DNA of 64,000 nucleotides from an uncultured Bacteroidales bacterium (lineage in GTDB: Bacteria; Bacteroidota; Bacteroidia; Bacteroidales; UBA12077), in assembly GCA_964585385.1 (NCBI GenBank), contig CAZPDP010000001.1, positions 50,850 through 114,849 of the forward strand, written 5' to 3'. The notes under the pieces were generated by a model that worked only from the letters and a program-made list of their open reading frames with translations, was not told the DNA's origin and made no database searches. Both the position numbers and the translations under genes were made by a program. Positions 8,231 through 55,923 of this stretch are shown in pieces. Every line of letters begins with the position of its first letter. Position 1 is the first letter of the stretch.

Positions 8231-8455
8231 TTTCTAAAACAAAATCTTTTCCCTGAATTTTTTGATGTTTACACTATCCCTTTTGATGCCTTATACCTGA
8301 ATTTGGTGTGTTGAAATAGTTGTTTTTATAATCTATTGATTCTCTTATTTGTTAAAAATTTTGTAAGTTAGTTTCAATTGTAACGACTAAGAAGTTTGAG
8401 TGAATAAATTTTATTTACTCTCAGTTAACTAGTACTTTAACAAAAAAACTTCATT

Positions 8456-9526
8456 ATGGAAAGACAACTCAGAACGGTTTTTATTTTCCTGAAATTTCTC
8501 GGAAAAGAATTTATTACTCCACTAAATTATCTAATGGCATTCCTGATTGGTATAACCATTAATTTTTTCCAGGGTCTTGGTTTATTCTATTCTGCAGTAC
8601 CTTTTATTGTCCCTATAATTGTTCAGGGTATTTCAAAAGCTTCTGTAAAGTTTGGCAACCGTAACATTAACTTATTGGTGCGCTTACCTACAGAACGTAA
8701 AGACCCGGCTTTTGTCATGAATACAAATGGGGATATTGTTGTTTCTGAAGGCAATACAAAACATTTTCTGAATCATTATTCCGTTCACAATTTTTCAGAT
8801 TTGTTTGAAAATCAGACTGTCGCTTCCATAAAAGGGCTCATTTATCAAACCTGCTATAAAGACGGACATCAAACTAAAGAATGGTATGCACCCAGAATAG
8901 ACCGCTGGTACACAGTTAATATGAAAGCTGACCCATTCAGCAATAATGTCCTTGTTTGGCTGGATGATATTACATTAAGAAAGAACCTGATTAATAAGCT
9001 CAGCAAAATTCGAAACTTTATTACACAAATGATGTTTAGCATTAACGAGCAGATTGAACTGGAGGACAGTATTGACAGGATGGCTGAATTCGTATTGCAA
9101 ATGGGATATCAGGGTATTTTTATTACAACAAAGGACAGCAATGAAGACTTAACAGGAAATGTATATAAAAAGACGGAAGGTGGTGAGATGAAAAAATCTG
9201 AAAAAATCAGTATTCCAAAAGATTCTCCTGCTCCAATCTGGGAAAGCAGAAAGCACAAGGGAATTGTAAGTGATTCAAGAAGCAATTACACGGCTCCTAA
9301 TGAGTTTGACTCCAAACATGCTTTCAGTGAAGATGTTCTGAAATTCCTTAACTTTAAGATCAATAATTTTATTAATTACCATGAGCAGAATATTTCTGTA
9401 ATTATTTTTAATAAAGAAGACGAAATAACCTTATTTGATCATACTTTGATGGAAGCTATTGTGAATTCTGCTTTTACAAGTCACCATTTGGTTAATATGA
9501 TTAAAACAGCAGGCAATAAAAATTGA
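8456..9526 (+). CDS. Membrane-anchored sensor-like protein (hypothetical)
   Basis: 356 aa with two N-terminal TM helices. The segment PTERKDPAFVMNTNGDIVVSEGNTKHF resembles the NPxPVxRFD module of the next gene. Its stop overlaps the downstream ORF. Confidence 0.4.
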   Translation: MERQLRTVFIFLKFLGKEFITPLNYLMAFLIGITINFFQGLGLFYSAVPFIVPIIVQGISKASVKFGNRNINLLVRLPTERKDPAFVMNTNGDIVVSEGNTKHFLNHYSVHNFSDLFENQTVASIKGLIYQTCYKDGHQTKEWYAPRIDRWYTVNMKADPFSNNVLVWLDDITLRKNLINKLSKIRNFITQMMFSINEQIELEDSIDRMAEFVLQMGYQGIFITTKDSNEDLTGNVYKKTEGGEMKKSEKISIPKDSPAPIWESRKHKGIVSDSRSNYTAPNEFDSKHAFSEDVLKFLNFKINNFINYHEQNISVIIFNKEDEITLFDHTLMEAIVNSAFTSHHLVNMIKTAGNKN

Positions 9527-9534
9527 AAAGTAAT

Positions 9535-11985
9535 ATGAAAAATAATAAAACCGAAATAGACGATCCTATACGTTCAATGGCGCTTTTTGCAGAAATGAAC
9601 CCGGAACCTGTTATCAGATTTGATAGCGGGGGTAAGATTCTTCAGTCCAATCCCTCGGCAAACCAGTTGTTCGAAAAAGAAGATCTGAAGAATGAAAAAA
9701 TAACCGAAATTTTACCTGAATGCAAAGAGTCTGATCTTCAAGAAATCATTGAAAAGAATAAAATTGAGATTATACTGGTTGATCTGAATTCAAAAGTATA
9801 CAACTTTGTTTTCAGGGGTATTTCTCAATATAGAGTCTGTCAAATTTATGGTTTTGATATTACCGATAAGATAGAAGCACAGAAGAAAGCCGAATCAATG
9901 GCCCTGTTTGCCCAAAAGAATCCGGCTCCTGTATTCAGATTTGATTCGAATGGAGATGTTTTGCAAGCGAATGAAGCTGCTGAAGAGTTGTTTATGTTGG
10001 TATGCCGGGAGGAGGAGATTAATATTTTTAATTTTTTTCCAGAATTAAGGAAAAAGGAAATAGATGCACTCATTAAGAATAACGAAATCAAATCCTTTGT
10101 TGAAAATTACTATGATTATCACTACAGGTTTGAACTGAGAGGCTTGTCGGATCTTCAGGCGGTTCAGGTGTATGGTGCTGATATTACAGAAATTGTAAAA
10201 GCTCATTATGAAAACGAAAAATTGTCAACAGCTGTTCAACAATCCTCCAATTCTGTAGAAATTACAGATATAGATGGTAATCTCGAATTTGTTAATAGGG
10301 CTTTTGAAGAGATTACAGGTTATTCTGCAGAGGAAGTAATTGGTAAAAATCCACGGATTTTGAAATCCAACTATCATTCAAAGGAATTTTACAAAGAACT
10401 CTGGGATACGATTAAATCAGGGAATGTTTGGAAAGGAGAGTTTTACAACAGGAGAAAAGATGGTACAGAAATCTGGCAGGAAGCTTCCATTTCGCCCATA
10501 AAAGATAAAGAAGGTGTCATCCGTAATTTTATTGCTGTAAAAGAAGATGTTACGGAAAAAAAGAAAGCCCGGGAGCAATTACAATCGATGGCTTTATTTG
10601 CCGAATTGAACCCCGAACCTGTCATCCGTTTTGATAAAAAAGGAACTATTTTACAGGCAAATCCAGCAGCAAATGAAAGCTTCTCAAAAGATTCCATTGA
10701 AGGAATGCAGATTAAAGATTTGATAAATGATTTAACAGATCTGAATATTTCAGAGTTTATCGAGAACAATCAGATAGAAACCATTGATATTGAGAACGGA
10801 GACAAAACTTTCCGTTTTATATTAAAAGGAATCAGTGAGATAGGAGTTTGCCAGATTTACGGCTCTGATATTTCTAAACGTATTGAAGCACAAAAAACAG
10901 CAGAATCAATGGCTTTGTTTGCTCAGTTGAATCCGGAACCCGTTTTCAGATTCGATGAGGAAGGTGTCATTCTACAGTCCAATCCTGCTGCAAACAAGAT
11001 TTTTGGTGGGGAACATATTACAGGGAAGTTGGTGCATGATTTGATTACAGGTGTCAATGAACTCAATTTCAGAGATTTTATTAAGGAAAACAAAATCCAC
11101 ACGTTTGATGAGAATTTGGGGGATAGCATATTAAGGTTTAAACTCAGAGGTATCAGTCACCTTGGAATTTGTCAGATTTATGGCTCAGATATTACCGAGA
11201 GGGTAAAAGCTGAACGCGAAGTGAGAAGGCAGAAAAAGGATATTGACGATAGCATTCAGTATGCCTCAAGAATCCAGAATGCAGTATTGCCTTCATCTGA
11301 GGTGATGGGTAAATACCTGGATGATTATTTTATTGTGTTGAAGCCCAGGGATGTAGTAAGTGGAGATTTTTACTGGATGAAGGAAAAGGATGAAAAGTTT
11401 GTGCTTGTTGCTGCTGATTGTACAGGGCATGGTGTTCCGGGTGCTTTTATGAGTATGCTGGGCGTTTCTTTCCTGAATGAAATTGTCAATAGTAAGGAGA
11501 ATCTGGAGGCGGATGAAATTTTAAATGATCTTCGTTATTTTGTTAAAACCACACTTTCTCAATCGGGAAAAAGAAAAACCGATGGTATGGACTTGTCATT
11601 GGTAATTATTGACAAGAAAAACATGAAGATGCAGTTTGCCGGCGCTTATAATCATCTTTATTTTTTCAGGGATGAAGAACTGCAAATAATAAAAGCTGAC
11701 AGGATGCCCATCGGAAATTATGTGGGCAAAGAAAAACCTTTTACCAGGGAAGAGTTGGCTATTCAAAAAGGAGATGTTTTTTATATCCTTTCAGATGGTT
11801 ATCCCGACCAGTTTGATAAACTTTCTCAGAGAAAATTTGGCTCCAGACGATTGAAGGAAAAATTTACCTTAATTCATAAAGACTCAATGGGATCTCAGAA
11901 AGAGAACCTGGAAAAAACATTTGAAGAATGGAAGGCCGATCACTGGCAAATGGATGATGTGCTGGTTATTGGAGGAAGAATATAA
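9535..11985 (+). CDS. Multi-PAS-like sensor fused to a PP2C/SpoIIE-family serine phosphatase
   Basis: The ORF track starts at TTG 9523; ATG 9535 is the more likely start. Four ~107-aa SMALFA-NPxPVxRFD...CQIYGxDIT modules, one canonical PAS (SNSVEITDIDGNLEFVNRAFEEITGY), and C-terminal SpoIIE motifs SGDFYW, AADCTGHGVPGAFMS, LSDGYPDQF and DDVLVIG. Confidence 0.85.
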   Translation: MKNNKTEIDDPIRSMALFAEMNPEPVIRFDSGGKILQSNPSANQLFEKEDLKNEKITEILPECKESDLQEIIEKNKIEIILVDLNSKVYNFVFRGISQYRVCQIYGFDITDKIEAQKKAESMALFAQKNPAPVFRFDSNGDVLQANEAAEELFMLVCREEEINIFNFFPELRKKEIDALIKNNEIKSFVENYYDYHYRFELRGLSDLQAVQVYGADITEIVKAHYENEKLSTAVQQSSNSVEITDIDGNLEFVNRAFEEITGYSAEEVIGKNPRILKSNYHSKEFYKELWDTIKSGNVWKGEFYNRRKDGTEIWQEASISPIKDKEGVIRNFIAVKEDVTEKKKAREQLQSMALFAELNPEPVIRFDKKGTILQANPAANESFSKDSIEGMQIKDLINDLTDLNISEFIENNQIETIDIENGDKTFRFILKGISEIGVCQIYGSDISKRIEAQKTAESMALFAQLNPEPVFRFDEEGVILQSNPAANKIFGGEHITGKLVHDLITGVNELNFRDFIKENKIHTFDENLGDSILRFKLRGISHLGICQIYGSDITERVKAEREVRRQKKDIDDSIQYASRIQNAVLPSSEVMGKYLDDYFIVLKPRDVVSGDFYWMKEKDEKFVLVAADCTGHGVPGAFMSMLGVSFLNEIVNSKENLEADEILNDLRYFVKTTLSQSGKRKTDGMDLSLVIIDKKNMKMQFAGAYNHLYFFRDEELQIIKADRMPIGNYVGKEKPFTREELAIQKGDVFYILSDGYPDQFDKLSQRKFGSRRLKEKFTLIHKDSMGSQKENLEKTFEEWKADHWQMDDVLVIGGRI

Positions 11986-25916: not shown

Positions 25917-26231
25917 GGTTTATCATCCAATTATATCAGTACCGGTTTATTGTTGACACAAACCGACTAAAATACAAATAAATTTTGTTAATAATTTTAA
26001 GCAAACAAAGAATTTAACGAATGTTTAAGAATTTTCCCTGTTGCTTAAATCATATAACTATTATATGTATGCTATTATTGTATTTATTTAGATTTATCAA
26101 TAATTATACTATATTTTTAACTTTTTGTTTCAAATAACTATGTATTGTTTAAAAAGCGCATTTGATTTATACCCATATTTTTTATATTTTGTCATCGCAA
26201 AAACAGCAGGAAACTAAGAAATTTAAATTTG

Positions 26232-29200
26232 ATGCGCCATCCATCAATCCTTGCATTCTTTTTTTGTATTGTTTTCATTACTCAGGGTTTTTCTCAGGTA
26301 AAGAGCAATGGCGTTCCTTACATTAACAATTATTCTATTGATGACTATTCTCCGTCAGGTTTTCGTGCTTCACCTCAGAATTGGGAAGTTTTTCAGGACT
26401 CCACCGGTTTGATGTTTTTTGGTAACACAGATGGCTTATTGATATATGATGGAGATGCCTGGAGATTCAGGTTTTTACCCAACAATTCAATTCTTCGCTC
26501 AATAGGTTCAGATACGAAAAATAACATTTATTTGGGTGGAGAAAATGAGTTTGGAATGTTGCATGCAGATTCAGCAGGTAGATTTCATTACAGGTCATTC
26601 ATGCCCCTGGTACCGGATTCTGTTAATATTATCAGAAATGTATGGGAAATAACTAACCTTAATGACACTGTTGTTTTCATGTCTCACAATAAATTGTTCT
26701 TTTATTACAAGGACAGCATTGTAGATATTATTGCGACACAGGACCAGTTTTTTCATCAGTATATTTATAACGATGATTTGTTTGTATTTGAGGCGGATGT
26801 TGGTCTCAGCAGATTAGAAGATGGAAAATTAAGGACTGTTCCTGATGGGGAATATTTCCGGAACCATACAGCCTGGGTAATTCTTCCGTTTGGAAAGGAT
26901 AGCCTGCTTTTTGCATCACCTGTGGATGGCCTTACAATATATCACGGCGGGAAGTTTGAAAGCTGGGATATACCCGCAAGTGATTTTTTACAACAGAAAA
27001 GAGTTTACTGCGGTGTTAGATTAAGAGACGGGAATTTTGCCTTTGGTACCCGTGGAAGTGGGGTGGTTATTATGAATGAAGAAGGCAGAATTATTCAATT
27101 AATTAATAAAGATAACGGACTGCAAAACGATGTAGTTCTTGACATATCAGTCGATCAAAGAGGAGATATATGGGTTGCACTGACAAACGGAATATCCTTT
27201 ATTAAAGTGAATTCGCCATTCTCATACTACACGAGTGATTACGGTATACCCAGGCAGAATTATTATGTTGAAGATTACAAAAACCATTTATTTTTCAGCA
27301 ATGATGAAGGTGTTTACGTAAAACCGTTAAATGATATTTCTAAAGAATTGCAAGTTGAAAAGGTACAACTTATAAGCGGTACAGAGGGACAATCCTGGCT
27401 TTTTCAGAAAGCCGGGGAATTTTTGCTTTGCGGGCATAATACCGGAGTGCTTGTTTTTAAAGACAGCCTGCTTCATAAAATTCTTCCTGTCCCCGTTAAC
27501 GTATGGCAAATTCTTCCGGATCCTGAAGACAATTCTAAATTCTATGCTTTATCCCTTGAGGGAATTTATATCCTGAGACTGCATAGTAATGATATTTCAG
27601 TTGAGAAAAAGCTTAAAGGTTATTCTGAAAATGTTATTTATGCTGAATTTGATACTACTGGCTATTTATGGATTTCAGATGAAATGAGTGGAGTGAAACG
27701 TTTGAAATTGAATGGAACAAGAGATTCTGTTCTTGAAGTAACAACCTATACCAGGGAGAATGGTCTGCCTTCTACGGAAGGTAACTGGATATTAAGAGTT
27801 GAGGATGAGGTTGTGCTTACTAACCCATCAGTTAATGGGTTTTATCATTACAATCCACTAAACGATAATTTTAAAAGCTATGAATCATTAAATGAACGTT
27901 TTGGAGTAAATGGAGAAATTACTCTGTACACCAAAGGACCAAAAGGAAATTATTGGTTGAGAGACAATGGGTTGGTAAGGATATTTGGTAAAAATGAAGG
28001 GCATTTTTACGAACTGGATACGCCCTTTCTAAAATTTAAAGGCAGAAATCTGGAAAGGCTCTCTTTCCTTGATTCTACAATCGCTTTCTTTGGTACAGAT
28101 GAATATGTTTTAAACTATTACCTGTCTGCAAAAGCTGATTTCCAGCAATTTTACAATTCCCACATTCGAAAGGTAATAAGTATGAAAAACGACTCTATTC
28201 TCTTCAATGGAAACATGCCTCATTCCAAAGATAGAAATTTGTTTGCCCATTCCGGAGAAGCGCTTTCTTTATCTTATTCTCTGAATGCTTTACGATTTGA
28301 ATTTTCAGCTGCTTATTTTGAAGAACCGGGAAATACAAAATACAAGGTCTGGCTTGAAGGACTTGAAAGTGAACCTGATGTTTGGATCCTTGAAACAAAT
28401 AAAGAATATACTAACCTGCAAGAGGGAGAGTATATTTTTCATGTTAAAGCAAAGAATATACATGGTATAGAAAGTAACGAAAGTTCGTTTTATTTTTCTG
28501 TTGAGCCTCCATGGTACCGGACTGTTTATGCTTATTTCGGTTATATTATAATCTTTATTGTTTTATTATATCTTGGTATATGGCTTTATGTACGAAAGTT
28601 GAAAGCTGACAGGGACAGGTTGGAACGGATAGTTAAGGAGCGTACAAGTGAAATACAGCAGCAGAAAGAAGAAATATCTGTCCAGGCTGAAGAATTGGAA
28701 AGAATAAATCAGGAGCTTCAAAAACTTTCCCTCGTAGCAAGTAAAACGGATAATGCTGTAATTATAGCTAATGCAGAAGGAAATATTGAATGGATTAATG
28801 ACGGATTTATTAGGTTATTTGGCTACTCCCTGAATGAGTTAAAAAATACCGGAAAAGACAAGATTGAAAACCTGGGGGATGAAAAGGAGTGGAAAGAGAT
28901 GTTACTTGAAGTGAACAGAATAAAAAAATTTGTCATTAAAGAATCTGAAATTACTACCCGGGACGGCCAGAAGCGTAATATACAAACTACCCTTACCCCC
29001 ATACTTAATTATGAAAACAGCATATTGAAGTATATTGCTATTTCAACGGATATTTCAAGGCTTAAGGAGGTTCAGGAAGAATTGCAAAAACTTATTGCCA
29101 CAAAAGATAAATTTTTTTCAATTATTGCACATGATTTAAAAAATCCATTTCACTCTCTTATGGGTATTTCCGAGCTGCTTACTAAATATCATGACAGTTA

Positions 29201-29777
29201 TGAACACGATAAATTAAAAGAATTATATGCACAGTTGTATAATGTAACTCATAAGGGTTATCAACTGCTCACCAATTTGCTGGAATGGTCGAGATCACAG
29301 ACAGGAAATCTTAAATTCAAACCTGAAACAACAGATATTGCTCAGTTGGTGAATAACTCTCTGGACATACTTATTTCCACAGCTGAATCCAAAAACATAA
29401 AAGTGAAAAACAACATAAAACCCGGGCTAAATGTAATTGCCGATAAGAATACTATAACCACTGTAGTGAGAAATTTGGTTTCAAACGCCGTTAAGTATTC
29501 CAGGGAAGGAGGGACAGTTATTATTTCGGCTGAAGAACGGGAAAATGATGTAAAGGTAAATGTTGAGGATAATGGAGTTGGTATCTCTCCCGAAAACATA
29601 GAAAAACTATTCCGTATTGATATAAATTTTTCAACAAAGGGGACTTATGATGAATCCGGAACAGGTCTTGGTTTGCTATTATGCAAGGAGTTTGTTGAAA
29701 AGAACGGCGGTAAGATATTTGTAGAAAGCATATTAGGAGAAGGCAGTACCTTTTCTTTCACCCTTGATAAACCTTAA
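26232..29777 (+). CDS. Sensor histidine kinase with periplasmic beta-propeller/Y_Y_Y domain, PAS, HisKA and HATPase
   Basis: The ORF track starts at TTG 26229; ATG 26232 is adjacent. About 750 aa of propeller-type repeats, a Y_Y_Y-like segment (YKVWLEG...EGEYIFHVKAKN), one TM helix, a coiled coil, PAS, the H-box FFSIIAHDLKNP, and an ATPase domain (GTGLGLLLCKEF). No receiver domain. Confidence 0.85.
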   Translation: MRHPSILAFFFCIVFITQGFSQVKSNGVPYINNYSIDDYSPSGFRASPQNWEVFQDSTGLMFFGNTDGLLIYDGDAWRFRFLPNNSILRSIGSDTKNNIYLGGENEFGMLHADSAGRFHYRSFMPLVPDSVNIIRNVWEITNLNDTVVFMSHNKLFFYYKDSIVDIIATQDQFFHQYIYNDDLFVFEADVGLSRLEDGKLRTVPDGEYFRNHTAWVILPFGKDSLLFASPVDGLTIYHGGKFESWDIPASDFLQQKRVYCGVRLRDGNFAFGTRGSGVVIMNEEGRIIQLINKDNGLQNDVVLDISVDQRGDIWVALTNGISFIKVNSPFSYYTSDYGIPRQNYYVEDYKNHLFFSNDEGVYVKPLNDISKELQVEKVQLISGTEGQSWLFQKAGEFLLCGHNTGVLVFKDSLLHKILPVPVNVWQILPDPEDNSKFYALSLEGIYILRLHSNDISVEKKLKGYSENVIYAEFDTTGYLWISDEMSGVKRLKLNGTRDSVLEVTTYTRENGLPSTEGNWILRVEDEVVLTNPSVNGFYHYNPLNDNFKSYESLNERFGVNGEITLYTKGPKGNYWLRDNGLVRIFGKNEGHFYELDTPFLKFKGRNLERLSFLDSTIAFFGTDEYVLNYYLSAKADFQQFYNSHIRKVISMKNDSILFNGNMPHSKDRNLFAHSGEALSLSYSLNALRFEFSAAYFEEPGNTKYKVWLEGLESEPDVWILETNKEYTNLQEGEYIFHVKAKNIHGIESNESSFYFSVEPPWYRTVYAYFGYIIIFIVLLYLGIWLYVRKLKADRDRLERIVKERTSEIQQQKEEISVQAEELERINQELQKLSLVASKTDNAVIIANAEGNIEWINDGFIRLFGYSLNELKNTGKDKIENLGDEKEWKEMLLEVNRIKKFVIKESEITTRDGQKRNIQTTLTPILNYENSILKYIAISTDISRLKEVQEELQKLIATKDKFFSIIAHDLKNPFHSLMGISELLTKYHDSYEHDKLKELYAQLYNVTHKGYQLLTNLLEWSRSQTGNLKFKPETTDIAQLVNNSLDILISTAESKNIKVKNNIKPGLNVIADKNTITTVVRNLVSNAVKYSREGGTVIISAEERENDVKVNVEDNGVGISPENIEKLFRIDINFSTKGTYDESGTGLGLLLCKEFVEKNGGKIFVESILGEGSTFSFTLDKP

Positions 29778-29819
29778 TGTGCCATATTTCGTAAAAACAA
29801 ATGAATTAAAATAAGATGT

Positions 29820-30050
29820 ATGAATCTTAAAAAGATATCTCTTATTTTTTTGTTTACCTATATGTATACAATACCAGTTTTTTCCCAGGAGGAAAATACC
29901 GGGTTGCCTTTTATTACAAATTATGATCCCGAAGAATACCAGGCTCATATTCAGAACTGGGATATTGACCAGGACAACAGGGGAGAGATTTTTGTTGAAA
30001 GTCAGCCCGGGGAAGGAACCACCTTTAGTTTTTCTGTCAGGAAGGCATAA
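29820..30050 (+). pseudogene. In-frame collapsed remnant of a propeller-type sensor kinase (76 codons)
   Basis: aa 1-53 (signal peptide + GLPFITNYDPEEYQAHIQNWDIDQDNRG) parallel the N-terminus of the 26232 kinase (GVPYINNYSIDDY...PQNWEVFQDSTG). aa 54-76 (EIFVESQPGEGTTFSFSVRKA) parallel its last residues (KIFVESILGEGSTFSFTLDKP). The ~1100 codons in between are absent. Confidence 0.6.
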
Positions 30051-30055
30051 TCCTT

Positions 30056-30300
30056 TTACTTTTTAGCATCACTCATACCCAAATTGAGCGATTTTCGCTC
30101 ACTGCTTGCCCCGTATACGAAGTGTCGGGGACAAAGAAATTGTAAGGTTCCACCTTCCCGACACTCCGTGTACGGGACAGTGAAAAACCGACAATTTCTA
30201 AGGTGTCCGGCAGCTGCCGTATAAGTAAAGCGTTTTTTCACTATCCCGGTAAAAATCGGGAAAACCGCTCAAATTAGGTCATAATAACTACGGTGTTTTA
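30056..30300. other. GC-rich, highly self-complementary intergenic element (candidate structured RNA or mobile-element footprint)
   Basis: A 20-bp stem CCCGTATACGAAGTGTCGGG / CCCGACACTCCGTGTACGGG (one wobble, one mismatch, ~26-nt loop, ~30110..30176). A perfect 12-nt palindrome CGGCAGCTGCCG (~30208..30219). AGTGAAAAA / TTTTTCACT pair at ~30179..30187 and ~30234..30242. TGAGCG / CGCTCA hairpin at ~30085..30101. Visibly higher GC than the flanks. Coordinates are +/-1 nt. Confidence 0.35.
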
Positions 30301-30427
30301 AATGGGTGTTTATTATTATATTCTTTCTGTCATTTAGCCAAAAGGTAACTTAAATCATCTAACTTTTTTTTCATTCTGCCGTTTATTACAGAAAAGGTTA
30401 CGAGAGTGACAGATTTAAATCCGGGTC

Positions 30428-32155
30428 ATGGTTGATATCTTTGCATCAAAAATCAGGAACCTGATTAATTCAGGGATTAAGGGTGACTTTAGTCAGGAGG
30501 CATTACGGAAAGCTTTGCTAATTAATATGTTTTCCCTGATAGGTCTTCTGTTTATGGTGTTTTTTGGCATAAGAAGTATCATGCAGGGAAATCATCTTAC
30601 AGGGTGGGTTGATATAAGTTTTGCAGGAGCTACTCTGGCTATACTGATTTATTTGCGTTTAACCCGTAATTATAAATTTGCTGGATGGGGTATTGTCCTT
30701 TTGCTGTTTGCATTGACTCTTTTTTTACTTGTTACAGATTTAGGACAGGGCAAGTTGCTGTGGTACTATGTTTTTCCCCTAATCGCTTATTTTATCCTGG
30801 GAATTAAACAAGGCGGCATTATTAATATTCTCTTGTTTTCCATAACTGTTGTATTGCTTTTATTTCCTTCAGATACTATGCCCCTCCGGAGCGAATCATT
30901 TATCATTCGCTTCATTTCTACATACATAGCAGTATCAGGTTTAGTTCATATTTTTGAATTTATTCGGCAAAGCACTTACCATTCCCTGATGGAAGCCAAT
31001 CATACCATTACTGAATACCTTTCTCATACTGTAAAACAAAAACAAGAAATTGAAAAACAAACAGAAAAACTGGAGCTCATCAACCTGGAGCTGAAAAAAC
31101 TCTCTGCAGTGGTAAGACAAACCGATAACGCAGTGATGATAGTTGACAGAACGGGGCAGGTGGAATGGGTGAATGATGCATTTACCAGATTATACGGTTA
31201 TAATATCCTTGACTTAAATGAGATGTATAACTGGGATTTGATTCATGCCGGTTTCAACCGGAAAATGAATGAAAAGATTGAACTGGTTATGCACAAAAAG
31301 GAATTTGTGAATTTTGAATCAGTTGTTACAAACAAAAACGGAGATGAAATTGAAGTTCAGACTACACTTACTCCCTTGTACAGCGAGGAAGGAGAGTTAA
31401 CCAAATTTATTATTATCGATACGGATATCAGGCAGTTGAAGGATGCGGAAAGAAAACTGCGGGAAGTGGTTGCAATGAAAGATAAGTTTTTTTCAATTAT
31501 TGCCCATGACCTGAAAAATCCATTCAATTCCATTATCGGTGTTTCAAAACTTCTTGCTGAAAACCCCGGAAAATATGACAAAGATAAGCTGAATTTCTTT
31601 CACAAGAGTATTTATAAAGTATCCAAAAATAGTTACGATCTTCTTATAAATCTACTTGAGTGGTCCAGGGCACAAGCAGGAACAATGGAGCTAATAATGA
31701 GTGATCTGAACCTCTATCTGACCATTAAGGATACCCTTCAACTTGTGGATTCTCAGGCAAAAGAGAAGAATATTGAGTTTAATTTTGCTGTGGACTCTAA
31801 TATTGAGGTAAGGGCTGATGTTAATACACTCCGGACTGTGCTGAGGAATCTACTTACCAATGCTATTAAATATTCCTGGAAAAACAGCAAAATAGATATT
31901 CGTGCTTCGGTATCAGGGGACTTTGTACAAGTAGACATAATAGATTACGGCATTGGTATACCCGCGGAAAAGAGCAATAAACTGTTTCGTATAGATAAGC
32001 AATTTTCTCGCCGGGGAACTAACAAAGAAGAGGGTACAGGTTTAGGGTTGGTTCTTTGCAAGGAATTTATTGAAAAGAATGGAGGAGAGATATGGGTCAA
32101 CAGCGAAGAGGGAAAAGGGTCTGTTTTTAGTTTTACTTTACAAACTACATCTTAA
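30428..32155 (+). CDS. Membrane sensor histidine kinase (multi-TM N-domain, PAS, HisKA, HATPase)
   Basis: 575 aa. About 6 N-terminal helices, a coiled coil, and a PAS-HisKA-HATPase part clearly paralogous to the C-terminal ~390 aa of the 26232 kinase (TDNAVMIVDRTGQVEWVNDAFTRLYGY; FFSIIAHDLKNP; GTGLGLVLCKEF). Confidence 0.85.
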   Translation: MVDIFASKIRNLINSGIKGDFSQEALRKALLINMFSLIGLLFMVFFGIRSIMQGNHLTGWVDISFAGATLAILIYLRLTRNYKFAGWGIVLLLFALTLFLLVTDLGQGKLLWYYVFPLIAYFILGIKQGGIINILLFSITVVLLLFPSDTMPLRSESFIIRFISTYIAVSGLVHIFEFIRQSTYHSLMEANHTITEYLSHTVKQKQEIEKQTEKLELINLELKKLSAVVRQTDNAVMIVDRTGQVEWVNDAFTRLYGYNILDLNEMYNWDLIHAGFNRKMNEKIELVMHKKEFVNFESVVTNKNGDEIEVQTTLTPLYSEEGELTKFIIIDTDIRQLKDAERKLREVVAMKDKFFSIIAHDLKNPFNSIIGVSKLLAENPGKYDKDKLNFFHKSIYKVSKNSYDLLINLLEWSRAQAGTMELIMSDLNLYLTIKDTLQLVDSQAKEKNIEFNFAVDSNIEVRADVNTLRTVLRNLLTNAIKYSWKNSKIDIRASVSGDFVQVDIIDYGIGIPAEKSNKLFRIDKQFSRRGTNKEEGTGLGLVLCKEFIEKNGGEIWVNSEEGKGSVFSFTLQTTS

Positions 32156-47076: not shown

Positions 47077-47274
47077 ATGTCAAAATATTCCATTTTTCTA
47101 ATTGTTCTGCTTTTATTATTCACAATTGCCCATCTGATAATTTCTATCGATTATAATCATCTTTTTACCGTTGGAAATAAAGGAGGTGCCACTGGTGTGA
47201 TGGTTGGAATTCTTGGTATAGTCTCTGTTATCTTGTCTCAAAAATCTGAAAAAAAGGAAGAGGGAGAATGGTAA
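47077..47274 (+). CDS. Small two-TM membrane protein (hypothetical)
   Basis: 65 aa with two hydrophobic helices and an acidic/basic tail. It has its own -7 box at the canonical spacing. Confidence 0.4.
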   Translation: MSKYSIFLIVLLLLFTIAHLIISIDYNHLFTVGNKGGATGVMVGILGIVSVILSQKSEKKEEGEW

Positions 47275-47288
47275 ATCCGGTTTTTGTT

Positions 47289-47495
47289 TTATTCATTTAT
47301 AAATTCGGTTTCATCCCAAATCGTGTCATTCCTCTCATTCAATAATGAATCCGATATAATTTCTTTTCTTCCATCTGAAAAATTCTCACTCTCACCCATT
47401 TCCTTCCTCTGATCATGTATATTGCTGGTTAATTCGGCCAAAACAAGAAACATGGCCATAAAAATGAATATGTAGGTGAAAATTTTCTTTTTCAT
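47289..47495 (-). CDS. Small single-TM protein with acidic tail, coupled to the rdhC-like gene
   Basis: 68 aa. ATGA start/stop overlap with the upstream ORF (47492..47495). Confidence 0.4.
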   Translation of the reverse strand: MKKKIFTYIFIFMAMFLVLAELTSNIHDQRKEMGESENFSDGRKEIISDSLLNERNDTIWDETEFINE

Positions 47496-48694
47496 GCTTT
47501 TCTCATTAAGGATTTAATTCTGTATCTGACAAGTATTACTATGCTGAAAATGGGTTTAATTGGGCATAGGAAATGACACCAGGGTCTTGTGATTATGGCG
47601 GAAGCTATTATTACAAGGGCTGCAAGGATAAACACCCATTTAGATGCTGTAAATTGAAATATAGCTCCGTATACTTCATATTCTGAAAGGGTTGGGTTTT
47701 GAAAATAGACTGCAATAAGAAGAGCTGCCCACGCCAGGGTGCGCTGAAACCAAATCCAGAAACGTGGGTTAGGCAATTGAACAGTATTAGATTTTCCGAG
47801 CTTACCAAGAATTTCCTGTGTATTACCCAGCGGACATATACTGTGGCAATAGATGTTTTTCCCTGTTGTAAGAAGAATTAAAAAAACACCAAAAACTAAA
47901 AGATAGATGTATAATTCGTCTTGCCAGTCGGGCCAGTAACCAAGTAAAATACTGCTTAACCTGGTGAGAGTGATAGGTTGATTATAAACAAATCCAATAA
48001 AGATGAGACCTAAGAATACTGTTATCCATTTAATGTGTGTTCTGTAAGGCAATCTATTGATTCTTGCCAGCATACCAAAGACAAACAAAAGGGCTACTAA
48101 GCCTTCCCGGTATCCAATTGTTAATTTGCCGTTCACCACCTCTGCGTCCTGAAACATTCCATTTCTTTTACCCAACTTAACAGCTGATTTTTTTATTGCC
48201 TCATTAATTCCCATACAGGTTTTGGTGGCCCCTGAAATAGCATCGGGAAATTTTTTGGGGGTAATTAACGCTTTGATGTTTTTGTTCTGGAAATCAGACA
48301 AATAGTTGTTTCTGCTTAATTTTTTATAGTAAGAAGGGGTCTCTTTGTGTCTGATAATGTGAATATCCGTAATCCTGTAGACTTGATTGAAGATGCTAAT
48401 GCATTCGATTTTGCCTGCATAGCCTGTTCCTTCAGCTATTACCGCATAACTCTCCGACTGGCCTTGTTTACCTTTAAGGCTGAAAATTTCAGGATTAATT
48501 TTTTCAATAGTATAAGAGGAATCAGGATAAAGACTTTGAATAAATTCAGTTGTAGTTACTTCTGTTTTATTTTTTCCGGCAAAGCCTACTCCAATAAGAA
48601 TAGCCACAGCGAATAGTGCCAAAATCCATTCTGCATTCTTCCTTACTTTTTGCTTTTTCCCTGCTTTTCTCTGTTGAATGTTAACAGTCTCCAT
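47492..48694 (-). CDS. rdhC: RdhC/PceC-like membrane flavoprotein (FMN_bind domain + NosR/NapH-like CxxxCP membrane domain)
   Basis: 400 aa. N-terminal TM helix, an FMN-binding domain (GYAGKIECISIF...RHKETP...DAISGATKTC), then about 6 TM helices carrying CHSICPLG and CHFLCPIK. Confidence 0.75.
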   Translation of the reverse strand: METVNIQQRKAGKKQKVRKNAEWILALFAVAILIGVGFAGKNKTEVTTTEFIQSLYPDSSYTIEKINPEIFSLKGKQGQSESYAVIAEGTGYAGKIECISIFNQVYRITDIHIIRHKETPSYYKKLSRNNYLSDFQNKNIKALITPKKFPDAISGATKTCMGINEAIKKSAVKLGKRNGMFQDAEVVNGKLTIGYREGLVALLFVFGMLARINRLPYRTHIKWITVFLGLIFIGFVYNQPITLTRLSSILLGYWPDWQDELYIYLLVFGVFLILLTTGKNIYCHSICPLGNTQEILGKLGKSNTVQLPNPRFWIWFQRTLAWAALLIAVYFQNPTLSEYEVYGAIFQFTASKWVFILAALVIIASAIITRPWCHFLCPIKPIFSIVILVRYRIKSLMRKA

Positions 48695-48963
48695 ATAAGT
48701 ATTCCCAAGATAAAATTAACTACAATAAAGAATCCCAGAAAGTACAGACCGGCTGATACTTCTTTTTCACCAATAAGTGTGAATCCACCAGCTAGCGTTA
48801 ATGACAGAAGTAAAAACCATATTGTAACCAGAGTCCACTTCCAGAAATTCATTTTAAGTCCCAGATCTTTTACCCAGATTGTAGCACTGTAGAATATAAA
48901 AACATAAAGAGCACCCATGATAATCCAGAAAATTGGTTTTAGAAAGATTTCAAAAATTCCCAT
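48643..48963 (-). CDS. rdhB: RdhB-like three-TM membrane anchor
   Basis: 106 aa. Three helices with the layout and Trp-rich middle segment (LKMNFWKWTLVTIWFLLL) reminiscent of RdhB/PceB. It starts 11 nt after rdhA. Confidence 0.6.
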   Translation of the reverse strand: MGIFEIFLKPIFWIIMGALYVFIFYSATIWVKDLGLKMNFWKWTLVTIWFLLLSLTLAGGFTLIGEKEVSAGLYFLGFFIVVNFILGILIWRLLTFNREKQGKSKK

Positions 48964-48974
48964 ATCGTAAAGAT

Positions 48975-50450
48975 TTAAATATCAAACCATTCTTCAGTTT
49001 TGAGCCATTCCGGTGGTTTGCCGTATGTTGCATTTTTGCCGTCCGGTGGAGGGAGGTATTCTTGTGCACCGGGATACTCAAAAAAGTTTTTCTGCATGGA
49101 AAGCATGGCTGAGGAAAACGTCCCGGTTGGATCATAAGGATCGGCTTCTTTTGCAAAACGGTGTATCCAGTTGTTTTTCCTCGAATAGGGACATACAGCC
49201 AGACAAACCCTGCAGCCCCTTGCATGGCTTGTAGCAACGGAATTCCATATGGTAAAGCAGCTATCTTCATTAATTTTCCACCTTACGTATCCCCGAACGG
49301 GTTTTTCGGGTTCATCAGCCATACTGATCGAACCACTCGGACATTCTTCTGCGCAGATTTTACACTTTTTACAGAATTCTTTAATACCAGCATCAATGGG
49401 TTTGTCAGGTTTTAGAGGCATATCTGTACTTACTGCTGCTAATCTTGTGTTTGCACCAAGCTCCGGAGTTATCAGGATTCCGTTTCTGCCTTGCTCGCCT
49501 AATCCCGCGTCAATAGCCAGGGGAGGCATGGCTATATCATAATTTGTAGGAGGAACATGCGAACGTGCCGAATAACCAATATTTTTTAGAAAAACCTCAA
49601 TCTTACCGGCAATGAAATTGAGTTTGGAATAAGCATCATAGGAAGTTCCATAAGTTGGATTAGCAAATAAGCTGTCCCATTCATGGGGAATAGCAATCAC
49701 TATGGCATATTTCCAGTGTTTGGGTTTACTAAAATTTGTTTTTCCAACACCTCTGAGATATCCCTGGTAGACCCAGTCATCCTTTATCTCTGTTATTCCA
49801 ACCAAAGTAGCCCCGAAAGTATGAGATATTTTTTTTATTAACTCAGAACCATGTTGTGATGATTTAAGCTTGTAAGGTTCAGTTTTTTTTCCCCGAAAAT
49901 CTGATTTTTCGGGCGGGCCATCGGGTTCTGGAGGAAATGCACCAGGACCGCGAAAAGAGCTTGAATGAGCGGCCGACCAGGCATCTGCCAGCAAATATCT
50001 GTCTTTGTATTTCTTCCAGTTTTTCCTTTGTTGTCTGCCTCGTTTCAGGGCCTTTTCAAATTCTTTTAGTTTTTCCGGGTGTTCAGCGTAATAGCTTTTT
50101 AAAGGTTCAGGTAAATTGTTTACACCTTGACCCGGTTTCCACTTAGCGCTGGATTCTTTCCCCGGATACATCAACCGGTATAATTCTCCATTTCTTTTAA
50201 AGATGTTCTCCAGGTATTGAATTCTTCTGGTTTGTCCTTTTTTCTCATATGTTGGTTTGGCTACTGCAAAAGCTTTCCGGTTAAAGAACTGGTTTTTGCC
50301 ATAAGCATTTTTTCCCCAGCCGGTGTAACTTTCTTTGCTTTTTCCTGAAAAATAACCCGCAGTGGCTGCTCCGCCGACACTCAGAATAGTACCGGCTATT
50401 CCTCCGAGTTTGATAAAATCTCTGCGGGTATATTTAGTTTTTTTGCTCAT
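48975..50450 (-). CDS. rdhA: Reductive dehalogenase catalytic subunit (RdhA-family, cobalamin/Fe-S)
   Basis: 491 aa. Twin-arginine signal TRRDFIKLGG, core blocks FGATLVGITE and GLGEQGRNGILITPELGANTRL, and Fe-S motifs CKKCKICAEECP and CFTIWNSVATSHARGCRVCLAVCP. Confidence 0.85.
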   Translation of the reverse strand: MSKKTKYTRRDFIKLGGIAGTILSVGGAATAGYFSGKSKESYTGWGKNAYGKNQFFNRKAFAVAKPTYEKKGQTRRIQYLENIFKRNGELYRLMYPGKESSAKWKPGQGVNNLPEPLKSYYAEHPEKLKEFEKALKRGRQQRKNWKKYKDRYLLADAWSAAHSSSFRGPGAFPPEPDGPPEKSDFRGKKTEPYKLKSSQHGSELIKKISHTFGATLVGITEIKDDWVYQGYLRGVGKTNFSKPKHWKYAIVIAIPHEWDSLFANPTYGTSYDAYSKLNFIAGKIEVFLKNIGYSARSHVPPTNYDIAMPPLAIDAGLGEQGRNGILITPELGANTRLAAVSTDMPLKPDKPIDAGIKEFCKKCKICAEECPSGSISMADEPEKPVRGYVRWKINEDSCFTIWNSVATSHARGCRVCLAVCPYSRKNNWIHRFAKEADPYDPTGTFSSAMLSMQKNFFEYPGAQEYLPPPDGKNATYGKPPEWLKTEEWFDI

Positions 50451-50533
50451 GGTGAAATAATTTTATGATTTTACGAAAATACTGAATTGTTAGTTACAAA
50501 TGAAACTACCAGGTGTAAAAATTTCATACTTCA

Positions 50534-50548
50534 TTCAAATTATTTGAA
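50534..50548. promoter_or_regulatory. Perfect palindrome TTCAAAT-T-ATTTGAA; candidate MarR operator
   Basis: 7-1-7 inverted repeat in the 161-bp rdhA/marR divergent region. It lies between a near-consensus minus-strand -7 box (TATTTTCG, 50474..50481) and the plus-strand box at 50579. Confidence 0.35.
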
Positions 50549-50578
50549 AATTAGATGAATTAAATGGACCGGAATTGA

Positions 50579-50586
50579 TATATTTG
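50579..50586 (+). promoter_or_regulatory. -7 box TATATTTG
   Basis: Exact TAnnTTTG, 25 nt upstream of the marR ATG. Confidence 0.4.
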
Positions 50587-50611
50587 CTGTAATTTAAAAT
50601 TATTCCAAACA

Positions 50612-51061
50612 ATGAAATATTCTTTCCAGCAATCCTTAGGAAGACTGACACAGCAAGTATCAAAAGGCTTAGGACAGGTGTTGGATATGAAATTTAAGAA
50701 TGCAGGTTATACAATTAATTCTTACCAGTGGACAGTTATCTCCTATTTAAATTATAATAACTTCTCATCACAAAAGAATATCAGTCAGTTTTTGGGTGTC
50801 AATAAGGTAATGACAAAAAGAATCATTGATCAATTGGAAGAAAACAAATATGTAAAAAGGGAACCCTCACAGAGTGATAAACGATATAACCGCATCGAAC
50901 TCACCAAAAAGGGACAGAAGTTATATCATGAGCTTACTCCATTTGCAGAAGAAACACTACAAGAAGCATACAAGAATCTTGATACTCAGGAAATCAAAAA
51001 TTGCCTGACTACTTTGAATAAAATTACAAAGACCCTGGAGAGTCTTAGAAAGGAAGAATAA
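50612..51061 (+). CDS. MarR-family transcriptional regulator
   Basis: 149 aa. Winged-HTH region QKNISQFLGVNKVMTKRIIDQLEENKYVKREPSQSDKRYNRIELTKKG. Confidence 0.85.
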   Translation: MKYSFQQSLGRLTQQVSKGLGQVLDMKFKNAGYTINSYQWTVISYLNYNNFSSQKNISQFLGVNKVMTKRIIDQLEENKYVKREPSQSDKRYNRIELTKKGQKLYHELTPFAEETLQEAYKNLDTQEIKNCLTTLNKITKTLESLRKEE

Positions 51062-54147: not shown

Positions 54148-55923
54148 TTACTCTTCTGAGAATGAGCGGAGTAGCCTTCTGTAAGCTGAAAATACATTCG
54201 CACGTGAAACAAATCCCAGGTATCTGCCATTGTCTAAAACAGGCAGATTATAGTGTTTGGTTGTCTGGAATTTTTGGGCCACTTCTTCCATTGACTCATC
54301 CGGTTGAACAATTGGGCTGGGCATATACATTAATTCTGAAACAAACACTTTATCGTATTGCTCCCTGTCAAACATTATATGCCTGATGTCATTTATAAAT
54401 ATTATTCCTTTTAGATTCATATCATTATCCACAACAGGCACTATGTTTCTTTCAGATTTTGCTATCACGTTGACTAATTCCCCCAATGTTGCATCATCAT
54501 GGATGGTCTTGAAATTTGTCTCAATCAGACTTCGGACTTTCATGATTGATAAAACCACCTTGTCTTTATCATGAGTAAACAATTCTCCTCTTCGGCCTAA
54601 CTGGTAGGTATACACTGAATATCTTTCGAATATCCTGATAATGGCATAAGAAATGGTTGCAGTAATCATTAATGGGAAGAACAAGGCGTAGCCTCCGGTG
54701 ATTTCAGCAATAAGAAACATACCTGTTAGCGGGGCATGTAAAACTCCGGCAATTAAACCACCCATTCCAGCTAGGGCGAAGTGGTTTTCGGGAAGATCTC
54801 CAATTCCAATATAGTTCATTAATTTTGCGAAAAACAATCCGCTGTTTACACCCATAAAAAGAGTTGGGGCAAATATTCCTCCAATTCCCCCGCTACCAAA
54901 AGTAATTGAAGTGGCTATAACTTTTAACAATATAATTACTATGAAAAAGAGGAAGACGAATATCACATTGTCTTTTAATCCATAAAAAAGACTTTGGGAG
55001 AATAAATAATCGAAATTACCATGAAGGCTGGCGTTTATAGATTCATAACCTTCGCCGTATAATGCAGGGAAAAGGAAAATGAGTAAGCCCAGTGCTGCAC
55101 TTCCGATTAGCCATCTGGTATACATGTTCTTAAAAACGTCAAAGACTTCTTCCACTTTTTTGTACATCCGTGTAAAATAGACGGAAACAAGCCCGGTAAA
55201 CACACCAAGTAATATATAAAAGGGTACCTGGTTTATTATAAAACTTTTTTGAATTTCAGCAGGATACAAAACATCCATTCCCAGGAAAAGATAGGAGGTA
55301 AGCGCCCCTGTTAGTGAGGCCAGTAGCAACGGAATTAACGATGACATGGTCAGGTCAATCATAAGAACTTCCAGAACGAATACAATTCCGGCTATGGGCG
55401 CCTTAAAGATTGCTGACATAGCACCTGCACTTGCGCAAGCAAGCATTAACAATACTTGTCTGTAGTTTAACCTGAAAAAACGACCGATGTTGGAGCCCCA
55501 GGCCGCTCCTGTAGCTACAGTGGGTCCCTCTAATCCTACCGAACCTCCAAAACCCACAGTAAGGGCACTGGTAACGATGGAAGAGAACATGTTGTGCGGT
55601 TGAATTTTTCCTTCATTTTTGGATATAGCAGCAAGGGTAAGAGGAATACCGTGGCCAACCTGTTTTTTTAGTACTTTCTTCATAAACAGAAGAGAACCGA
55701 AAATTCCAACAGCAGGTAGCACAAAATAAAGGTAATTCTGATACTGGTTGACAAAACCGCTTGTAATAAGTTCTTTGATTAAATGGACTGCGTTCTTGAT
55801 AATGACGGCAGCCACACCAGATGTGAAGCCAACCAGCACAGCCAGGATATATAAAAATTGGCGGTCACTAATATGCCTTTTTCTCCAGATTAATATTCTT
55901 CCTAGTTGTGTCGGTCTTTTCAT
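54148..55923 (-). CDS. ClC-family chloride channel/antiporter with two C-terminal CBS domains
   Basis: 591 aa. Selectivity motifs GLEGPTV and GGIFAPTLFMG, and a C-terminal CBS pair. Confidence 0.9.
   Translation of the reverse strand: MKRPTQLGRILIWRKRHISDRQFLYILAVLVGFTSGVAAVIIKNAVHLIKELITSGFVNQYQNYLYFVLPAVGIFGSLLFMKKVLKKQVGHGIPLTLAAISKNEGKIQPHNMFSSIVTSALTVGFGGSVGLEGPTVATGAAWGSNIGRFFRLNYRQVLLMLACASAGAMSAIFKAPIAGIVFVLEVLMIDLTMSSLIPLLLASLTGALTSYLFLGMDVLYPAEIQKSFIINQVPFYILLGVFTGLVSVYFTRMYKKVEEVFDVFKNMYTRWLIGSAALGLLIFLFPALYGEGYESINASLHGNFDYLFSQSLFYGLKDNVIFVFLFFIVIILLKVIATSITFGSGGIGGIFAPTLFMGVNSGLFFAKLMNYIGIGDLPENHFALAGMGGLIAGVLHAPLTGMFLIAEITGGYALFFPLMITATISYAIIRIFERYSVYTYQLGRRGELFTHDKDKVVLSIMKVRSLIETNFKTIHDDATLGELVNVIAKSERNIVPVVDNDMNLKGIIFINDIRHIMFDREQYDKVFVSELMYMPSPIVQPDESMEEVAQKFQTTKHYNLPVLDNGRYLGFVSRANVFSAYRRLLRSFSEE

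Follow-up and report, generated by a model that had tools for sequence, protein, structure and literature searches.

The closest described counterpart of the gene cluster reported here is the pceABCT/PceA2B2 system of Desulfitobacterium hafniense and Dehalobacter restrictus (8Q4H; PMC10624902, PMC5928378). In that system the catalytic subunit PceA is exported by twin-arginine translocation (TAT) and has two Fe-S motifs and a Tyr/Arg pair, PceB is a three-helix protein with an E-x-E loop, and PceC has an outward-facing flavin mononucleotide (FMN) domain, a flavinylation threonine and two CX3CP motifs. The same A-B-C gene order and corresponding features were found at positions 47289-51061 of a 64-kb stretch of DNA from an uncultured Bacteroidales bacterium (hereafter the window; all coordinates are those of the full window). 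There, genes for a reductive dehalogenase (RDase) catalytic subunit RdhA, an RdhB anchor, an RdhC flavoprotein and a small membrane protein are accompanied by a divergent marR gene. The two systems also differ. RdhA is ~21% identical to PceA over the fold alignment and its N-terminal half is unrecognised by PF13486; the window cluster is without pceT, a CRP/FNR (RdhK) regulator or a transposon context; its host is a Gram-negative member of the Bacteroidales; and it has MarR and the extra 68-aa membrane protein. From the analysis described here, the cluster is probably a five-gene organohalide-reduction module of a marine-type Bacteroidales, made up of a PceAB-like menaquinol:organohalide oxidoreductase and a PceC-type accessory flavoprotein under MarR repression.

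Clusters of this kind are not confined to Firmicutes. Desulfoluna spongiiphila and D. butyratoxydans are marine facultative organohalide reducers that debrominate and do not dechlorinate; they have rdhA-rdhB-rdhC clusters in which RdhC carries the FMN threonine and CX3CP motifs, and MarR- and LuxR-type regulators are encoded near rdhA2 (PMC7031245). They differ from the window in belonging to another phylum, in using mostly sigma-54 activators and in having no small fourth gene reported; the comparison made here is one of gene content. Desulfobacterota homologues of the window RdhA at ~54% identity do exist. In Dehalococcoides mccartyi the MarR-family gene for Rdh2R adjoins rdhA, and MarR regulates rdh genes negatively there (Wagner 2013; Krasper 2016; both cited in PMC6299228). 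This system was compared by description only; it differs in that its RdhA is quinone-independent and in that most of its clusters are without an RdhC of the window type. The earlier note on this DNA, made from the letters alone, had placed the rdhABC order in Firmicutes and MarR beside rdhA in Dehalococcoides; neither is restricted to those groups, as Desulfoluna has both (PMC7031245).

Reductive dehalogenase genes are also on record from the phylum itself. RdhC sequences from Bacteroidetes were listed by Buttet et al. in 2018 (PMC5928378). Later papers report 112 Bacteroidota genomes in GTDB with RDase genes, together with transcription of RDase genes of Bacteroidales bins in tetrachloroethene (PCE)-dechlorinating marine enrichments (2025 Aarhus Bay study, PMC12090745), 55 Bacteroidota metagenome-assembled genomes (MAGs) with rdhA-like genes from cold seeps (PMC12219181), and Carboxylicivirga and Marinifilum MAGs among the dominant putative organohalide-respiring bacteria of PCE-dechlorinating marine sediment cultures (2025 ocean survey, PMC12660952). 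These RDases share with the window RdhA the phylum, the marine sediment or seawater habitat and the automated annotation as 'reductive dehalogenase'. The cold-seep 'novel clade' has an N-terminal helix, TAT export and RdhB, and a host range resembling that of the window RdhA clade; the window RdhA is, as in that description, about equidistant from PceA and NpRdhA (PMC12219181). The available parts of the three survey papers make no mention of a MarR operator, a small fourth gene or synteny. The Aarhus Bay paper also states that no Bacteroidota RDase has been characterised physiologically (PMC12090745). The statement in the earlier note that no characterised Bacteroidota equivalent was known thus stands for physiology and biochemistry, but its novelty was overstated, such genes having already been surveyed. 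Novelty for Bacteroidota has largely been overtaken by the surveys of 2018-2025. The new elements are the palindrome and the small fourth gene, both conserved, together with the recognition of a cultured carrier.

The open reading frames (ORFs) rdhA (48975..50450), rdhB (48643..48963), rdhC (47492..48694) and the small ORF (47289..47495) all lie on the minus strand. The marR gene (50612..51061) lies on the plus strand, divergent from rdhA across a 161-nt intergenic promoter region (50451..50611). A gap of 11 nt separates rdhA from rdhB, rdhB and rdhC overlap by 52 nt, and the rdhC stop and the small ORF share an ATGA. All these ORFs, their coordinates and their spacings reproduced those given in the earlier note. 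Every motif that it quoted was present in the translations of RdhA and RdhC, and the small ORF was, as described, acidic with a single transmembrane (TM) segment. Its assignment of the genes to RdhA, RdhB, RdhC, MarR and a small membrane protein was likewise backed by hidden Markov model (HMM), motif, conservation and structure tests. Among the HMM searches that it had proposed, TIGR02486 and FMN_bind scored above their cut-offs, but PF13486 and the local Pfam RdhB model were unmatched.

The 491-aa product of ORF 48975-50450 (-) is, as judged from sequence, a bona fide RdhA, that is, the predicted TAT-exported catalytic subunit with a corrinoid and two [4Fe-4S] clusters. Residues 236-456 matched positions 77-311 of the 314 in TIGR02486 with 188.9 bits (E = 2e-55), above the curated cut-off of 160.35. 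The score against the QueG model TIGR00276 was 49.2 bits, far under the equivalog cut-off of 200, and the doubt raised beforehand as to whether the protein might be QueG is settled in favour of RdhA. The sequence carries RRDFIK at residue 9, FGATLVGITE at 212, GLGEQGRNG at 316, CKKCKICAEECP at 360 and C398-x14-CRVCLAVCP with its second part at 413. The cysteines of the two Fe-S motifs are C360, C363, C366 and C370-P, and C398, C413, C416 and C420-P. Among 42 homologues of 53-78% identity, all eight cluster cysteines and Y274 were invariant and R336 was at least 90% conserved. Sequence matches in the PDB were DhPceA (8q4h_A, 5.5e-34), NpRdhA (9e-32), SmPceA of S. multivorans (1.7e-30) and QueG (1.9e-9).

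Modelling led to the same family. The AlphaFold2 (AF2) model of RdhA had a predicted local distance difference test (pLDDT) score of 74.7 and a predicted template modelling score of 0.77, and recovered the RdhA fold with the catalytic Tyr and Arg in place. Foldseek placed 8q4h_A, the RdhB-bound PceA of the PceA2B2 complex, first (E = 1e-15, TM-score 0.57), followed by NpRdhA (5e-15) and SmPceA (1.6e-13); QueG was ten orders of magnitude weaker than 8q4h_A (2.5e-5, TM-score 0.32). RdhA is about equidistant from the respiratory (PceA) and cytosolic (NpRdhA) structures. In the 8q4h_A chain the counterparts of Y274 and R336 are positions 289 and 348, which a single offset of 48 converts to Y337 and R396 of DhPceA, both essential residues (PMC10624902). 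NpRdhA has Lys at the position equivalent to R336, and therefore the predicted active site is PceA-like.

These results bear on the possibility that the protein is an RdhA-superfamily corrinoid/Fe-S reductase acting on a non-halogenated substrate in a different reductive elimination, much as QueG does on an epoxide. The clade is only ~20-30% identical to characterised RdhAs, PF13486 was unmatched, and some of the homologues are automatically annotated as epoxyqueuosine reductase, all of which would fit such an enzyme. It was nevertheless TIGR02486 that was passed with QueG far under its cut-off, the fold search favoured RdhAs by the ten orders already mentioned, and the catalytic Tyr/Arg pair of PceA is conserved. 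The predicted export to the periplasm and the RdhB and RdhC partners also speak against it; to our knowledge, export together with such partners is specific to organohalide reductases. QueG itself is a cytoplasmic enzyme that acts on tRNA. We regard a non-halogenated substrate as improbable.

The export signal separates the window RdhA from another type of Bacteroidota enzyme. Residues 8-14 of RdhA form a twin-arginine motif, T-RRDFIK, in which K14 was invariant across the 42 homologues and R10 at least 90% conserved; with the TAT model TIGR01409 the protein scored 14.8 bits, slightly under the cut-off of 16.7. Marinilabiliales isolates have a 'hybrid' RDase with three N-terminal TM helices, without TAT or RdhB (Atashgahi 2019, PMC6797604). 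Assignment of the window RdhA to these hybrid Marinilabiliales/Bacteroidetes enzymes with N-terminal TM helices was considered on account of the same host phylum and habitat (PMC6797604), and AlphaFold draws residues 9-36 of RdhA as a helix. The RRDFIK motif, a separate rdhB and the finding that no segment of RdhA exceeded the TM hydropathy threshold refute the assignment, which we give next to no credence.

The rdhB product is a 106-aa membrane anchor with three hydrophobic segments and E66-K-E68 in the loop between the second and third TM helices. Its precomputed Pfam annotation is PF27193 (VcrB), and against the local Pfam copy it gave no match. A homologue followed rdhA directly in 20/20 related loci that reach past the end of rdhA, from at least eight phyla (Bacteroidales, Thermodesulfobacteriota, Neomarinimicrobiota, Aminicenantes, Anaerolineae, Planctomycetota, Krumholzibacteria and others). 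E66 and E68 were invariant in 18 RdhB orthologues, and a profile built from these orthologues found PceB (8q4h_C) as its best PDB match (E = 0.004, positions 6-90 of 98), with the E-x-E on the SEREY loop of PceB. The identity of RdhB is based on the precomputed PF27193, the conservation and this profile match, which together bear out the RdhB-like three-TM anchor proposed from the letters.

Proteins of the RdhC family are recognised by several TM helices, by an FMN-binding domain that faces outward and bears [S/T]G[A/S]TX[S/T], and by two CX3CP motifs (PMC5928378). The 400-aa product of rdhC has all three of the family-defining sequence motifs (SGATKT at 154-159, CHSICP at 283 and CHFLCP at 373), and it matched FMN_bind (40.5 bits) and Fer4_5 (35.1 bits) above both gathering scores. 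In 35 homologues A156 was invariant, T157 was at least 90% conserved, and both CX3CP motifs and an HKETPS block were conserved. The AF2 model (pLDDT 90.7) has helices at about residues 21-39, 195-211, 218-236, 261-277, 310-331 and 352-367, with a beta-rich domain at residues 48-177 between helices 1 and 2. The predicted PceC-type membrane flavoprotein thus has TM1, a periplasmic FMN-binding domain, five more TM helices and two CX3CP motifs on the cytoplasmic side, in keeping with the PceC/RdhC architecture first read from the letters. TM1 and the FMN domain resemble the structures of RnfG and NqrC, both covalently flavinylated subunits; the membrane module had no PDB match. Because the Lys/Arg-rich N-terminus implies an N-in orientation, we infer that the FMN domain faces outward.

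RdhC has the FMN_bind domain in common with NosR, and like NosR/NapH a four-helix membrane module with two CX3CP motifs (PMC5928378). It differs in having no C-terminal 4Fe-4S ferredoxin motifs, its only six cysteines including no CxxCxxCxxxCP. A NosR or NapH identity was rejected, the scores being 29.6 bits against a cut-off of 1000 and 26 against 213. RdhC is also less conserved than RdhA. Its closest homologue, probably that of the Bacteroidales MAG locus L003, is 46% identical, whereas the RdhA proteins of the window and L003 share 75% identity, and the proportion of nonsynonymous differences (pN) was 0.36 for RdhC and 0.14 for RdhA. Synonymous sites were saturated (proportion of synonymous differences 0.72-0.94), leaving the ratio of nonsynonymous to synonymous rates uninformative and only the pN ranking usable. 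Since RdhC is less conserved, is often missing in the clade and has a scarce counterpart in the PceC of Firmicutes, by analogy it is most likely an accessory electron-transfer or reductive-activation partner and not the main electron route.

A 68-aa protein with one TM segment and 14 D/E versus 8 K/R residues is the product of the fourth operon gene. Homologues were found directly after rdhC in six loci (L001, L002, L003, L009, L158 and L159), starting at the rdhC stop or within a few tens of bases of it. In every one of them a basic N-terminus is followed by a single TM helix and an acidic tail that closes with W-x-x-[TS]-E-F; W60, E64 and F65 were invariant in the family. A profile search of 5.8 billion proteins returned only 10 clusters, the named members of which are Bacteroidales or Bacteroidetes 'hypothetical protein'. 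No Pfam or NCBIfam family was matched, and the gene is missing from L004, L005 and L012, Bacteroidales clusters that are more distant. To judge from this conservation the small ORF is a real gene of a narrow family found only after rdhC. The topology suggests that the acidic tail faces the periplasm, and the protein may be an overlooked subunit. In the closest relatives (L158:3643-4807 and L001:3589-4753), genes of the thioredoxin/AhpC type (with a weak T4_deiodinase match) and of the nitroreductase family lie convergently just past the small ORF; dehalogenases that depend on flavin or thiol occur in both superfamilies. The window has neither gene at the position after the small ORF.

The 149-aa product of marR is a winged-helix regulator that matched MarR (PF01047) with 31.6 bits against a cut-off of 24.6. 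It reached no NCBIfam equivalog, the best being BilQ (51.8 bits, cut-off 125), and its PDB relatives are all generic MarR/SlyA proteins. Divergent MarR orthologues of 34-57% identity were present in the Bacteroidales loci L001-L005, L007, L012 and L018. Comparison of the loci uncovered an 18-bp pseudo-palindrome, which had been missed by a repeat search with a minimum length of 10. In the window it lies at 50491..50508 and reads TAGTTTCATTTGTAACTA on the rdhA strand. When the stretches between marR and rdhA of nine Bacteroidales loci were aligned, the consensus TAGTTwCAnnTGwAACTA was the sole conserved block; 13 columns in it were invariant, where the mean column identity was 44%. Its core occurred once in each of the 9/9 loci with marR beside rdhA, always 30-55 nt upstream of the rdhA start, and in 0/26 other loci, among them L009, which carries rdh genes without MarR. 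The window contains one exact match, with 0.15 matches expected by chance at two or fewer mismatches. The palindrome is a candidate MarR operator at the rdhA promoter, and the comparative evidence for it is good.

The same site was also found away from rdhA. In 120 metagenome loci (826 kb) that contain the exact 18-mer, all 15 MarR-family tblastn matches lay within ~300 nt of the motif, and rdhA was also present in 3/120. Thirteen loci without rdhA (L038, L050, L062, L074, L080, L088, L111, L127, L137, L141, L142, L145 and L156) carry exactly this 18-mer 21-291 nt in front of MarR-family genes whose products are only 22-30% identical to the window MarR. In these distant MarRs the recognition helices follow a shared pattern, (D/N)KVx(V/I/T)(S/K)R. 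From these comparisons the palindrome seems to be a box common to a wider MarR subfamily with similar recognition helices. As for core promoters, TATATTTG is a TAnnTTTG box (Bacteroidetes -7 type) located ~25 nt upstream of the marR ATG. On the rdhA strand a TAnnTTTG box overlaps the palindrome or lies at most 12 nt downstream of it in 6/9 loci, the window not being among them. A sigma-70 promoter and terminator scan, which does not model Bacteroidetes promoters, performed no better than on shuffled sequence.

A second operator-like site, TAGTTTCAATTGTAACGA, was seen at 8369-8386 (+), one mismatch from the palindrome consensus and to be read against the same expectation of 0.15 per window. It is intergenic and lies 69 nt before ORF 8456-9526, whose 356-aa product has a membrane N-terminus and matched no Pfam family; this ORF in turn overlaps a PAS-SpoIIE phosphatase gene at 9523-11985. 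The MarR regulon may thus have a second member here.

An RdhA protein identical to that of the window is already in NCBI. At least 120 protein clusters were found at 53% identity or more, several of them annotated 'reductive dehalogenase [Bacteroidales]' and some epoxyqueuosine reductase, and the hosts of the clade belong to Bacteroidota, Desulfobacterota, Krumholzibacteriota, Acidobacteriota and Chloroflexota. The rdhA-rdhB-rdhC order is present in at least eight Bacteroidales loci and in other phyla. In L003 the genes for IlvE (86% identity) and DnaX (88%), MarR, rdhABC, the small ORF and an LPG-synthase gene occur in the same order as in the window. As L003 shares the flanking genes in this order, the cluster is an inherited part of the chromosome that was present before the window and L003 lineages diverged. 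In other Bacteroidales its genomic surroundings differ. A cultured carrier is Carboxylicivirga fragile N1Y90 (L005), which has MarR, the palindrome, a TAT-bearing RdhA 61% identical to that of the window, an RdhB with GEDE, and an RdhC with TGATLS and two CX3CP motifs.

The composition of the cluster varies. L009 and L159, with ~70% RdhA identity and Tara Oceans contigs included, have rdhABC and the small ORF without MarR and the palindrome. Upstream of the L159 cluster an extracytoplasmic function sigma factor, FecR and a TonB-dependent receptor set stand in place of MarR, which suggests a swap of regulator. Two long-read metagenome contigs, L036 (3.97 Mb, 60% identity) and L037 (576 kb, 54%), have only rdhA-rdhB, without rdhC or MarR. 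A resolvase gene adjoins the rdhAB pair in L037 and hints that the minimal rdhAB cassette is mobile. At L075:3640-4065 the palindrome is followed by an 85-aa N-terminal RdhA fragment fused straight to a 55-aa stretch matching RdhC, and this looks like the deletion remnant of an rdh cluster.

The rest of the window is an ordinary Bacteroidota chromosome, with genes for DnaA, LptD_2, GldB, a CHU_C type IX secretion protein, DnaE, DnaX, polyphosphate kinase and RelA/SpoT. The Bacteroidota background proposed from the letters is upheld by GldB, the CHU_C domain and LptD_2, and by Bacteroidales MAGs being the nearest relatives. The G+C content of the cluster (0.398 versus ~0.36) is only slightly raised, no integrase or transposase was found among its neighbours in the window, and there was no sign of a mobile element. 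By Pfam scan or precomputed Pfam, the 43 window ORFs of at least 90 aa include no ApbE, cobalamin or PceT-like/trigger-factor-like chaperone gene, in agreement with what the earlier note had said of the window, and the annotations of the window ORFs show no hydrogenase or formate dehydrogenase near the cluster.

Several other features of the window were observed. The dnaA gene at 1716-3143 (-) places the rdh cluster within ~50 kb of the likely replication origin, and cumulative GC skew climbs throughout the window without a turning point. A CLC-type chloride channel with CBS domains is encoded at 54148-55923 (-), ~3 kb from the cluster, past dnaX and ilvE. Its proximity is probably coincidental, because the halide would be released in the periplasm. 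Converging on the end of the rdh operon is a 65-aa ORF with two hydrophobic segments (47077-47274, +), which an independent gene caller also predicted on the Logan contig L035; it matched no family, and no homologue was detected in the related loci. At 26229-32155 (+) are adjoining genes for two large sensor histidine kinases with PAS domains, of which one also has a Y_Y_Y domain and the other MASE6. No response regulator was seen among the window ORFs, and the pair appears unrelated to the rdh cluster.

Taken with the structure of PceA2B2 of D. hafniense, these data allow a working scheme to be proposed. By analogy with that complex, RdhA would fold with its corrinoid and Fe-S clusters in the cytoplasm and then be exported by the Tat system. 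The exported protein would dock on RdhB, and menaquinol would be oxidised at the A/B interface. Electrons would then pass through the two clusters to cobalamin, and halide would be removed from the organohalide in the periplasm. RdhC, flavinylated by an ApbE encoded elsewhere, would most likely act as an accessory partner, much as NosR does for NosZ. MarR would bind the palindrome at the rdhA core promoter and repress transcription until released by the organohalide or a related aromatic ligand. The organism would in this way use the module as a facultative, inducible terminal reductase. The most plausible substrates are natural marine bromo-, iodo- or chloro-aromatics. In its full form, the proposal is that marine Bacteroidales carry out inducible organohalide respiration by a lineage-specific four-protein complex of RdhA, RdhB, RdhC and the 68-aa subunit, controlled by MarR through the palindrome; this we put forward tentatively, as a possible reading.

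A number of points weigh against the scheme. PF13486, the Pfam N-terminal RdhA domain, found no match in RdhA at E <= 0.1, and it is likewise missing from the precomputed Pfam annotation of all the listed homologues. Because of this, and because TIGR02486 covers only residues 236-456, the N-terminal half of RdhA is divergent. Identity to any characterised RdhA is ~20-30%, and the C-terminal region, the would-be quinone site, has a pLDDT of only 45-65 in the AF2 model. Corrinoid binding and halide-releasing activity of RdhA are predictions. The window carries no genes for corrinoid supply, ApbE, Tat or menaquinone. The role of RdhC is uncertain, because rdhC does not occur in many members of this RdhA clade and PceC is ~50-fold less abundant than PceA in Firmicutes (PMC10624902). 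In the window no exact TAnnTTTG overlaps the palindrome, where only near-matches were seen. MarR binding to the palindrome is proposed from its conservation, and the negative sense of the regulation and the nature of the effector are likewise proposals.

The same complex might also operate without energy conservation, in a Bacteroidales that lives mainly by fermentation, as an electron sink ('facilitated fermentation') or in the detoxification of algal or sponge halogenated phenolics with no respiratory growth benefit. In favour of such a use are the description of Marinilabiliales with rdh genes as fermenters without other respiratory reductases (PMC6797604), the presence of only one rdhA copy, controlled by a MarR repressor of the stress type, and the finding of no hydrogenase or formate dehydrogenase nearby. 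Against it, TAT export, the E-x-E of RdhB and the conserved C-terminus of RdhA are those of the quinol-linked respiratory type (PMC10624902). Upstream dehydrogenases can, moreover, conserve energy with any menaquinol-linked terminal reductase. We consider the non-respiratory use unlikely; it differs from the working scheme in physiology and not in molecular mechanism.

Natural organohalide pools are large in marine sediments and seawater, where Bacteroidota abound, and surveys keep finding RDase genes in this phylum, with no isolate shown to dehalogenate. The locus described here is a complete example of a respiratory-type cluster on a Bacteroidales chromosome. It leaves the current picture of how a reductive dehalogenase works unchanged. 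The handles gained are a candidate operator, a possible overlooked subunit and a cultured carrier, Carboxylicivirga fragile N1Y90, as a possible test organism. Because this strain carries MarR, the palindrome and rdhABC, the question of organohalide respiration is directly testable. If true, respiration by the four-protein complex would provide a genetic basis for this process in a phylum without a physiologically proven organohalide respirer.

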